DNA of 64,000 nt from an uncultured Acidobacteriaceae bacterium. Its GTDB lineage: Bacteria > Acidobacteriota > Terriglobia > Terriglobales > Acidobacteriaceae. The stretch covers positions 1,603,842 to 1,667,841 of the forward strand of contig CAWGNC010000003.1 in NCBI GenBank assembly GCA_963823865.1, written 5' to 3'. The number at the start of each line of letters is the position of its first letter. Position 1 is the first letter of the stretch. This document shows, one piece after another, positions 30,521 to 32,116 of the stretch. Below the pieces are notes generated by a model. It ran no database searches and was not told the DNA's origin. It saw only the letters and a list, made by a program, of their open reading frames with translations. Position numbers and translations under genes: made by a program.

Positions 30521-30553
30521 AACTGACAACTGACCACCGGCAACTGACAACTG
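30521..30553 (-). repeat. heptamer array (sense CAGTTGT-type) 2 nt after the ahcY stop
   Basis: 7-nt periodicity: AACTGAC AACTGAC CACCGGC AACTGAC AACTG. A 31-nt core is identical to 32086-32116. Confidence 0.9.
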
Positions 30554-30555
30554 CT

Positions 30556-31833
30556 TTACGTTCCTTCGCTCCAGCTTGCCAGGTACTCTTCCTGTTCCGG
30601 AGTAAGGCGGTCGATCTTGATGCCCATCGACTCCAGCTTCAGTTTGGCGACTCGCTTGTCGAGCTCTTCCGGAACCACGTAGACCTTCTTCTCCAGCGAC
30701 TTGTGGTTCTTCACCAGGTAGTCGACCGAGAGGGCCTGGTCAGCGAAGCTCATGTCCATCACGGACGGCGGATGCCCCTCAGCCGAGGCCAGGTTGATGA
30801 GGCGGCCTTCGCCCAGGAGGTTGATCTTGCGTCCGTCCTTCATCGAGTACTCTTCGACGAAGGCGCGGGTGGTGCGCTTGGAAGACGACAGCTTCTCGAG
30901 TGCGGGGATGTCGATCTCGACATTGAAGTGGCCGGAGTTGGAAACGATGGCTCCGTCCTTCATGGCTTCGAAGTGCTCTTTGCGCAGCACGCTCTTGTTG
31001 CCGGTAACGGTGCAGAAAACGTCGCCGATCTTAGCGGCTTCTTCCATGCTCATTACGCGGAAGCCGTCCATCACAGCCTCGATCGCCTTCGTCGGATCGA
31101 TTTCGGTGACGATAACCTCAGCGCCCAGACCGCGTGCGCGGCTCGCCAATCCACGGCCGCACCATCCGTAGCCGGCGACCACGAACTTGGAACCCGCCAG
31201 CAGGAAGTTGGTGGCGCGTACGATGCCGTCGATGGTCGATTGTCCCGTGCCGTAACGGTTATCGAACAGGTGCTTGGTGTCAGCGTCGTTCACCGCGATG
31301 ATGGGATAACGCAGAACGCCCTGCTTCGCCATGGCGCGCAGCCGAATGATACCGGTGGTGGTCTCTTCCGTGCCGGCAATTACGCCGTCGAGCACATCGG
31401 TGCGCTTGGTCAACGCGATGGTGACCAGGTCAGCGCCGTCATCCATGGTGATGTGCGGCTTGTGATCGAGCGCGGACATAATGTGCGAGTAGTAGGATTC
31501 GTTGTCCTCGCCCTTAATGGCGAAAACCGGGATGTTGTAGTCCTTCACCAGACAGGCGGCGACATCATCCTGCGTGGACAGCGGGTTGGAGGCGCACAGC
31601 ACAACATCGGCGCCGCCATCGCGCAGGGTAATGGCCAGGTTGGCGGTTTCAGCCGTAACGTGCAGGCAGGCCGAAATGCGCATGCCCTTCAACGGCTGGC
31701 TCTTGAGAAAATCCTTGCGGATGATCTGGAGGACCTTCATCGACTGATTGGCCCAGTCAATACGCTTCTTGCCCATATCGGCAAGTGCGATGTTGGCGAT
31801 ATCGCCGGCGACGCGAGTGGTTGTGGTCGACAT
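30556..31833 (-). CDS. ahcY: adenosylhomocysteinase
   Basis: 425-aa ORF with SAH hydrolase hallmarks ([12 protein letters not shown] at the C-terminus, NAD-binding [10 protein letters not shown]) and a GGAG SD. Confidence 0.95.
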
Positions 31834-31904
31834 AATCTCCTTAGAACAGTTTCGAGTTTCTAGCCGACGAACCGATGCCGGCGATGTTTTTAAAGTCTTG
31901 CACT

Positions 31905-31991
31905 CTGCCGTCCCTACGGGACTTAGACCTCTGGACGAACCTAACCCAGCGCTGAAGCGCTGGGTTAAGCTCTTTCGCCCCTTCAGGGCTC
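31905..31991. repeat. dispersed hairpin-module repeat (CTGCCGTCCCTACGGGACT core plus CCCAGCGCTGAAGCGCTGGG hairpin)
   Basis: The core is shared with 56785-56803 and 60544-60563. It lies in the metK-ahcY spacer. Confidence 0.8.
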
Positions 31992-32075
31992 TACTTTTGC
32001 CGGTGCGGTTGTCATTGACTTACGCGCACATGCTGCAACGACCCACAGCTGTGCCGAGCAATCGGGACGACCACG

Positions 32076-32116
32076 ACAACTGTTGCTGACAACTGACCAC
32101 CGGCAACTGACAACTG
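32076..32116 (-). repeat. heptamer array 2 nt after the metK stop
   Basis: ACAACTG TTGCTG ACAACTG ACCACCG GCAACTG ACAACTG. It contains the 31-mer identical to the one behind ahcY. Confidence 0.9.

Follow-up and report, generated by a model that had tools for sequence, protein, structure and literature searches.

Tandem heptamers at start and stop codons have been noticed for decades in cyanobacteria, Beggiatoaceae, Bacteroidetes and Xanthomonas without an accepted function. Here, heptamer arrays are described in a 64,000-nucleotide stretch of an uncultured Acidobacteriaceae bacterium (assembly GCA_963823865.1, contig CAWGNC010000003.1, positions 1,603,842 to 1,667,841; this whole stretch is hereafter the window), in which an identical 31-nt element (the 31-mer) follows the stop codons of both ahcY and metK and related arrays accompany the genes of the nuo operon. 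Among the closest described systems are the TAACTGA tandem repeats of Beggiatoaceae, cyanobacteria, Bacteroidetes and Thiocystis, which lie mostly in a 'forward' orientation ending ~1 nt before start codons that lack a ribosome-binding site (RBS); their forward strand carries stops in all frames and their reverse strand is open, a few sets lie reverse-oriented right past stop codons, and strains differ by 7-nt insertions or deletions (indels) (MacGregor 2015, PMC4679880). The same study reported one inverted repeat only, predicted no structure and suggested ribosomal protein S1, cold-shock proteins (Csp) or CsrA as binders (PMC4679880). The GGGAATC heptamers of Xanthomonas and the GGGGAYT heptamers of Nostoc have their G-rich strand as sense within 50 bp after stops and as antisense within 50 bp before starts, are found mostly between co-directional open reading frames (ORFs) and undergo transcription (Rehm 2015, PMC4692102). 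The short tandemly repeated repetitive (STRR) sequences of Calothrix and Nostoc are, in the summary given by a later paper, tandem heptanucleotides in non-coding DNA (cited in PMC4692102), and a Nostoc preprint reports heptamers close to start codons and speculates that they act in regulation. Heptamers are also, as summarised at second hand, the commonest long simple sequence repeats of prokaryotes (Mrazek 2007, as cited in PMC4679880).

The window arrays very probably belong to this class of intergenic tandem heptanucleotide repeats, which includes the STRR, the TAACTGA repeats and the G-rich heptamers, because their units depart from TAACTGA by one to three bases with the register kept. They display head-to-tail 7-nt units, confinement to non-coding DNA and strain differences in multiples of 7 nt. 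The cyanobacterial STRR are likewise tandem heptanucleotides in non-coding DNA. Their units include CCCCAGT, TTGGTCA and CAACAGT and have been used mainly for fingerprinting, and we know of no positional rule described for them. The likeness to the TAACTGA repeats extends to tandem intergenic units of 2–6 or more copies and to 7-nt indels between strains. The forward arrays of the window also occupy the same position, upstream of RBS-less starts, with stops in all frames of the forward strand and an open reverse strand, and the 31-mer corresponds in these terms to the reverse, open strand. The exact units differ, those of array type A in the window being CAACTGA, CAACTGG and CCACCGG and those of type B TAATTGC and TAACGGC. 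Tandem heptanucleotide repeats beside start and stop codons were already on record (PMC4679880, PMC4692102), although the earlier note on this locus knew of no such motif.

In contrast to the TAACTGA repeats, where the stop-abutting reverse form is anecdotal, this form is the finding itself here, ~40% of the arrays stand in polar inverted pairs and the phyla include Acidobacteriota, Planctomycetota and Chloroflexota. The strand rule of the window arrays is that of the G-rich heptamers, which can form G-quadruplexes, whereas CAGTTGY cannot because it has no G-runs; the study of those heptamers offers neither heptamer-level abutment nor a systematic analysis of inverted pairs, unlike the present one (PMC4692102). 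Neither the inverted-pair architecture nor any heptamer array of Acidobacteria turned up in the literature searched. Apparently new, in that no description was found, are the stop-abutting reverse form as a major form, the presence of such repeats in Acidobacteriota and several other phyla, the strict polarity of the pairs and the bridging from stop to start. The present analysis thus adds the same units in Acidobacteriota, Planctomycetota, Chloroflexota, Omnitrophota and other phyla, a strand rule at both gene ends, a pair polarity of 51:0 among the matches listed and a recurrent stop-stem-start geometry at junctions within operons where no Shine-Dalgarno sequence precedes the downstream gene.

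Arrays at stop and start codons in the window

The sequence CTGACAACTGACCACCGGCAACTGACAACTG occurs on the plus strand of the window at 30523–30553 and 32086–32116 with 0 mismatches between the copies, and a third copy at 56983–57013 carries 3 mismatches; no copies are expected by chance (100 shuffles). Both ahcY and metK lie on the minus strand, and the distance from the TAA stop codon to the 31-mer is exactly 2 nt in each. Tandem Repeats Finder reports arrays of period 7 with 4.6–4.7 copies and 76% matches at 30521–30553 and 32086–32117, the unit reading CAGTTGY/CGGTGGT on the coding strand and CAACTGR on the other. The 31/31 identity, the 2-nt spacing and the 7-nt periodicity that the earlier note had read from the letters are thus all reproduced, as is its placing of the ahcY array in the 3' untranslated region, between the stop codon and an intrinsic terminator.

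The following features of the metK-ahcY locus are all on the minus strand. Array A1 (30521–30553; sense CAGTTGT CAGTTGC CGGTGGT CAGTTGT CAGTT), which includes the 31-mer, lies 2 nt past the ahcY stop (30556–30558) and is followed by a degenerate complementary arm at 30495–30518 (sense GACGACGCGACCGCCATGGCAAG), its predicted partner in a local hairpin, and then at 30465–30490 by an intrinsic-terminator-like hairpin, GAAGGGCGGCAGCGATGCCGCCCTTT, with the T-run CTCGTTTTGA. The ahcY gene itself, encoding S-adenosylhomocysteine (SAH) hydrolase (AdoHcyase), extends over 30556–31833 and is preceded by the strong Shine-Dalgarno sequence TAAGGAGATT at 31834–31843. Just upstream of the latter, at 31844–31863, lies a remnant of a second heptamer type with the unit GAAACTN (sense CTAGAAACTCGAAACTGTTC), which is a full array in relatives (L130, L134 and L135), where it pairs with (NAGTTTC)n past the metK stop. 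Further upstream are a degenerate forward arm at 31997–32016 (sense AATGACAACCGCACCGGCAA), complementary to part of array A2, and A2 itself at 32086–32117, whose 31-mer is identical to that of A1 and which lies 2 nt past the metK stop (32119–32121). The metK gene, encoding S-adenosylmethionine (SAM) synthetase, occupies 32119–33306, with an alternative GTG start at 33333 in the ORF list. No terminator-like site was found on scanning the metK-ahcY spacer, so that metK and ahcY are probably co-transcribed.

Searched against Rfam 15, the sequence upstream of ahcY or metK (31834–32118) resembled no SAH or SAM riboswitch even at E ≤ 1, and there was nothing overlapping 30521–30553 or 32086–32117 at either the gathering score or E ≤ 1. 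The window sequence lies on a 508-kb soil-metagenome contig of an acidobacterium. Short-read assemblies made independently from further samples (L003, L008 and L009) contain the same array sequences, and the arrays are therefore not an assembly artefact.

The same array type, with the units CAGTTGY, CGGTTGY, TGGTTGY and CAGTGGY, is found past the stops of nuoL, nuoJ and nuoI, all on the minus strand, and Tandem Repeats Finder reports the corresponding period-7 arrays at 56982–57013, 59847–59870 and 60870–60888. Array A3 (56978–57015; sense CAGTTGT CAGTTGT CAGTGGC CAGTTGT CAGTGATC) lies 4 nt past the nuoL stop (57018–57020), A4 (59847–59872; sense CAGTTGC CGGTTGT CGGTTGT CAGTT) 5 nt past the nuoJ stop (59878–59880) and A5 (60866–60890; sense CAGTTGT TGGTTGC TGGTTGT CAGTC) 1 nt past the nuoI stop (60892–60894). 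This results in five of five arrays of the A type beginning 1–5 nt past a same-strand stop (ahcY, metK, nuoL, nuoJ and nuoI). Given a chance of stop abutment of ~0.01 per array, the probability for all five is ~1e-10, which bears out the expectation of a placing and orientation far from random with respect to stop codons.

A second heptamer type, sense GCTAATT / GCTAACG / GCTGATA, which is TAATTGC in another register, stands directly upstream of the starts of nuoM, nuoL, nuoK and nuoJ. These forward arrays, also on the minus strand, lie 0–8 nt from the ATG, and a GGAG-type Shine-Dalgarno sequence is absent at all four starts. The array at 56653–56702 (sense TAGCTAATTGCTGACGGCTGATAGCTGAATTGCTGAGAGCTATTAAATT), predicted partner of A3, ends 8 nt before the nuoM ATG (56650–56652); that at 59178–59225, of the GCTAATT / GCTAACG type, abuts the nuoL ATG (59175–59177); that at 59610–59646 (sense GGCTAGTTGCCAATTGCTAAGAGCTAAGAGCTATTT) ends 3 nt before the nuoK ATG (59607–59609); and that at 60399–60435 (sense TTGCTAATTGCTAACGGCTAATTGCTAATTGCTGATT) ends ~2 nt before the nuoJ ATG (60394–60396). 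All arrays of the window are intergenic. The genes that adjoin them (ahcY, metK and nuoI-M) have a third-position GC content (GC3) of 0.82 vs 0.70 in the rest of the window (Mann-Whitney p = 1e-4), which suggests an association of arrays with highly expressed genes, the nuo genes not being mutually independent since they form one operon.

Strand rule, pair polarity and turnover of arrays

A degenerate 25-nt array pattern searched in a collection of species-representative genomes matches at least 120 loci in at least 8 phyla, and all counts from this search are among the matches listed. These include Acidobacteriota, Planctomycetota, Cyanobacteria, Bacteroidota, Chloroflexota, Omnitrophota, Poribacteria, Latescibacterota, Chlorobiota, Thiocystis and others, with CAGTTGY arrays in Nostoc, Calothrix, Microcoleus, Anabaena and others. 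When 129 arrays were each oriented to read CAGTTGY and scored for their distance to stops and starts, a same-strand stop lay no more than 10 nt from the left end in 29 and an opposite-strand start in 32, compared with 9 stops and 3 starts for the right end. The strand rule is thus that the G/T-rich NNNTCAG is sense after stops, and CTGANNN/CTAANNN is sense before starts. The CTGANNN strand closes all three frames, because every unit holds TGA or TAA.

A complementary array is present within 400 nt on the 3' side in 38–52 of 125 arrays, depending on the score cut-off, and on the 5' side in 0 of 128. About 40% of the arrays stand in inverted pairs, with the G/T-rich arm in the 5' position in 51:0. 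The order on either strand is 5'-(NNNTCAG)n ... (CTGANNN)n-3', and the reverse arrangement was never seen among these matches. Similarly, when arrays of all unit types in the acidobacterial loci are considered, the excess of G over C is greater in the 5' arm for 19 of 20 pairs. Where both neighbours could be called, the pair entries comprise 23 co-directional, 4 convergent and 0 divergent cases; one pair (L090) was found from both strands, leaving 22 distinct co-directional pairs, i.e. 22 of 26. The outer ends of the pairs are usually within ~10–20 nt of a stop and of a start. Sixteen such spacers from at least 8 lineages, read by eye, display the order stop-stem-start, and a GGAG-type Shine-Dalgarno sequence is absent in all of them. 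Very long or multiple alternating array pairs also occur (L159, 3781–3907 and 5725–6011; L102, 5458–5602; L090, 1340–1561), and the extremes include a perfect stem of 59/61 bp in a metagenome-assembled genome (MAG) of Gemmataceae and, in a MAG of Vicinamibacterales, a stem of -89 kcal/mol, which would be extreme for an intercistronic spacer. In annotation, the arrays are of use for marking true stop and start codons.

Nine contigs encoding an identical AhcY were compared for array content. In one of them (L006) the ahcY array is shorter by exactly 21 nt, which equals three units, and in two others (L004 and L005) its units stand in a different order and no array follows the metK stop. Gains and losses of whole 7-nt units indicate slippage. 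Because L004 and L005 are close relatives that keep the ahcY array without a metK array, the metK copy is young, and copying from array to array best accounts for the 31/31 identity of two sites that lie 1.5 kb from each other. Another Acidobacteriaceae MAG (L032) has the identical 31-mer, extended to a 35-mer with TTAC, in its rpsK-rpsD spacer, where the orientation to the genes is reversed. The comparisons suggest that arrays evolve by gain and loss of whole units through slippage, together with copying of particular arrays between loci.

At a greater distance, 80 metagenome loci with an AhcY 83–94% identical to that of the window were examined past the ahcY stop. A period-7 array lies between this stop and the terminator in 28 of them, with the units TTCTCAG, CATTCAG, GTCTCAG, CTGTCAG, AATTAGC and GCGAGTT, most of which hold a TCAG or TTAG core. 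To judge from these sequences, the position of the array at the ahcY stop persists while the unit turns over. A period-7 detector, consisting of a window-based test calibrated on shuffles, found 75 arrays in 475 kb of AhcY orthologue loci vs 3–5 in shuffles, and 66 of the 75 are intergenic, the intergenic share of the 475 kb being 27%. The ends of the metK-ahcY spacer are complementary arrays in 6 of 71 orthologous spacers, with paired units that differ by lineage (GAGTTTC/GAAACTC, AGGTCAG/TCTGACC and AAGTCAA/TTGACTT); such lineage-specific matching arms could also stem from copying at the DNA level.

In relatives with an identical NuoK, compact nuo spacers of 74–111 nt at the I-J, J-K, K-L and L-M junctions have one common module, stop-(CAGTTGY/CAGTGGY)3–5-linker-(TGCTAAT)3–5-ATG, and the J-K arrays of two such relatives (L212 and L216) differ. 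Longer nuo spacers of relatives hold hairpins resembling repetitive extragenic palindromic (REP) sequences, a repeat resembling a miniature inverted-repeat transposable element (MITE) or a gene for a REP-associated tyrosine transposase (RAYT) in their middle.

Proposed pairing of array arms and alternative explanations

Our favoured explanation combines the identity of the repeat class, its evolution, its placement and a mechanism based on mRNA stems, and as a whole we hold it at an even chance. Within it, the mechanism is tentative and is drawn from the geometry: the arrays may be arms of mRNA stems that close the untranslated spacer, coupling cistrons or capping a 3' end to an extent tunable by slippage. 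Paired in the mRNA, the arrays would close the spacer into a stem. In operons such as nuo the stem would set the upstream stop beside the downstream start and hide the start region, and a terminating ribosome would open the base of the stem, allowing translational coupling or re-initiation without a Shine-Dalgarno sequence. At the end of a transcription unit, as at ahcY, the stop-proximal arm would fold with its short partner into a hairpin in front of the terminator. With the G-rich arm first, no C-rich naked RNA would be exposed and start-like codons would stay clear of the true start. Two established systems, translational coupling through masking of the RBS and the shunting of ribosomes across a stem, as in the cauliflower mosaic virus (CaMV) leader, serve as analogies of mechanism only; the geometry would match in that a few nt separate the base of a long stem from the upstream stop on one side and from the next start on the other. 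Doubtful, if wider in reach, is the proposal of an intercistronic device common to many phyla, in which polar heptamer pairs would form a stem from past one stop to before the next Shine-Dalgarno-less start, terminating ribosomes would re-initiate across the stem base in a bacterial analogue of shunting or termination-reinitiation, replication slippage would tune the coupling strength through stem length, and the 31-mers of ahcY and metK would be stop-proximal arms. If the stem acts in mRNA, translation coupling free of Shine-Dalgarno sequences and tunable by slippage would be widespread in operons; if it does not, the strict polarity still indicates that a strand-specific process shapes bacterial spacers.

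The predicted duplex between A3, after nuoL, and the pre-nuoM array reaches -37.1 kcal/mol vs -16.0 +/- 3.9 in shuffles (z = -5.5), and the predicted hairpin of A1 with the arm at 30495–30518 reaches -27.5 kcal/mol (z = -3.2 vs shuffles). One perfect Watson-Crick nuo pair gives z = -4.2, the predicted nuoI-nuoJ pairing gives z = -2.8, and the paired arms are ~87% Watson-Crick. Several results weigh against a stem selected at the RNA level. Predicted pairing is no better than in shuffles for the nuoJ array with the pre-nuoK array and for the metK array with the GAAACTN remnant before ahcY, and the hairpin of the metK array with 31997–32016 is weak (z = -1.9). Compact nuo spacers fold with z-scores of -0.2 to -2.6 vs shuffles, and two are positive (+0.44 and +1.55). 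Among the 23 co-directional pair entries, transition mismatches compatible with G.U pairing number 22 in the sense and 26 in the antisense strand (p = 0.67), giving no sense-strand bias, and the compensatory or G.U-tolerant variation specific to the transcribed strand that marks a selected RNA stem was not found. At ahcY the gene has a strong Shine-Dalgarno sequence of its own. About two thirds of the AhcY orthologue loci (~65%) have no array at the ahcY stop, most of the orthologue arrays past this stop have no partner and are followed by the terminator, and many nuo spacers in relatives are array-free (e.g. L-M of L212); any function of the arrays is thus dispensable, since so many of these loci and spacers do without them. 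Because there is no G.U bias, the folds are modest and partnerless arrays and array-free sites are many, DNA-level processes may be what keeps the arms alike. Compact nuo spacers fold much better as sense than as antisense strands, but this large gap in minimum free energy (MFE) was discarded as evidence; it is compositional, because shuffled sequences of equal composition fold nearly as well.

A serious rival, which we consider somewhat unlikely, is a neutral or DNA-level origin of the arrays. It holds that the arrays are neutral or selfish slippage DNA: heptamers, the most slippage-prone repeats, are excluded from ORFs and pile up in spacers, their orientation is filtered by purifying selection that tolerates stops, start-like codons and C-rich naked RNA only in certain places, and the arms become alike through template switching or gene conversion at the DNA level. 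The 7-nt steps in copy number between near-identical strains, the array-free state of most orthologous sites, the missing G.U bias, the modest fold z-scores and the reported rank of heptamers among long prokaryotic repeats agree with it. It sits less easily with the very tight abutment of one array end only, with the pair polarity of 51:0 among the matches listed, with the recurrence in many phyla of stop-to-start bridging at Shine-Dalgarno-less starts, with the array position kept at the ahcY stop despite unit turnover and with the tie of arrays to the genes of highest codon bias in the window (the GC3 contrast above, in which the nuo genes count as one operon). The arrays might also serve as landing sites for an abundant protein that binds single-stranded RNA, each of its domains or subunits covering ~7 nt. 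Such a protein would attract or block ribosomes or shield the RNA, and the candidates are ribosomal protein S1, cold-shock proteins and a HutP-like ring protein reading NAG-N4 repeats. A conserved 4-nt core (TCAG/TTAG sense after stops, CTGA/CTAA before starts) with 3 variable nt, typical arrays of 4–6 units and the same units in distant phyla among the matches listed would suit such a reader. Ring proteins such as HutP and TRAP provide the analogy; HutP-like sites have at least 3 NAG triplets spaced by 4 nt, and CAG/TAG is present every 7 nt in the arrays. S1, Csp and CsrA were proposed in the same sense for the TAACTGA repeats (PMC4679880). This explanation is unlikely all the same, for a single protein would need to recognise two complementary sequences in the two contexts, and the units differ widely between lineages.

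More improbable again is site-specific insertion, the other possibility raised in the earlier note, by which REPIN- or MITE-like units would be moved by a strand-specific enzyme, e.g. a Y1/HUH transposase recognising the TCAG strand. Like the REP, BIME and REPIN elements mobilised by RAYT proteins (PMC3116915), the arrays are short and intergenic, often lie just past stops, form inverted doublets able to fold into hairpins and have a fixed polarity, and REPs coexist with heptamer arrays in the same spacers. Insertion would account for the identical 31–35-mer at three unrelated loci, the strict pair polarity, the RAYT-like Y1_Tnp genes inside the nuo spacers of relatives and the patchy distribution over many phyla. 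REPs, in contrast, are single imperfect palindromes with a GTAG head, whereas the arrays are direct 7-mer repeats without GTAG, and the RAYT genes found, as in L212 and L216, are flanked by GTAG-type GGTAGAGCG-hairpin REPs and not by heptamer arrays, so that a RAYT/REP link was rejected. Moreover, loop sequences and array lengths differ at every site, no clean pair of empty and filled sites was found in the loci compared, and the arrays vary by unit slippage rather than as fixed-length elements. The reading that first drew attention to the locus, a shared post-transcriptional signal co-regulating the SAM-cycle enzymes AhcY and MetK, starts from the 31/31 identity behind two neighbouring genes of that cycle and is now scarcely credible. 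The same arrays follow nuoL, nuoJ and nuoI and lie in the rpsK-rpsD spacer, the metK copy is absent in the close relatives L004 and L005, AhcY orthologues have unrelated units or none, Rfam gives no match and the array pattern extends to at least 8 phyla. It is well supported that the 31-mers have no specific tie to SAM metabolism. An origin of the arrays by duplication of stop or start codons was rejected since it predicts the wrong orientation after stops, and readings of the unit as Chi-like, as integron attC-like, as a DdeI site or as a G-quadruplex were set aside, as none fits the sequence or the orientation.

Other repeats and genes in the spacers

The only Rfam matches near the arrays are to Acido-Lenti-1, at 31945–31990 and 60583–60643 on the plus strand (54 and 39 bits; gathering score 37). 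They lie in the metK-ahcY and nuoI-nuoJ spacers outside the arrays, are palindromic hairpins of ambiguous strand and resemble one more dispersed spacer repeat. The 9.6 kb of sequence to the left of the window contain no arrays.

The long nuo spacers of the window each hold one copy of a MITE-like repeat starting GTCATCCTGAGCG(C/G)AGGATCG (56717–56737, 59247–59267, 59655–59675 and 60477–60497, plus strand). Its 4 copies, with 0 expected, each stand between the stop-proximal and the start-proximal heptamer arrays. RAYT-like genes for Y1 transposases (PF01797) are located within the L-M or D-H spacers of relatives whose NuoK is identical (L212, 12881–13507; L216, 3875–4471; L218, 4397–4951), with inverted GGTAGAGCG-hairpin REP sequences on both flanks, and GCTTCAGC-loop hairpins similar to those REPs are present in the nuo spacers of the window (e.g. 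59718–59835). Between both arrays, a linker motif, CAGTTTGG ... TCTTTGA(G/T)(A/T)TTT, is common to the I-J, J-K, K-L and L-M spacers (L212–L218; in the window 59838–59846 and 56962–56970), as though one module of ~100 nt had been copied to each nuo junction.

In two related contigs a gene of the 23S_rRNA_IVP family (PF05635) lies between nuoM and nuoN (L215, 6052–6474; L217, 6248–6670). The nuoI-nuoJ spacer of the window contains a further tandem repeat at 60654–60773, with 3.4 copies of a ~32–36-nt unit (CGTTCCGCATCACTCTCGAGCTCGGAGATCCTTCAC). Finally, nuoL is represented in the window by three ORFs on the minus strand (58914–59177, 57537–58895 and 57018–57264) and in relatives by one gene of 709 aa; the split most likely reflects indel errors of a nanopore-based assembly, the contig name ending in np1212, and not a pseudogene.

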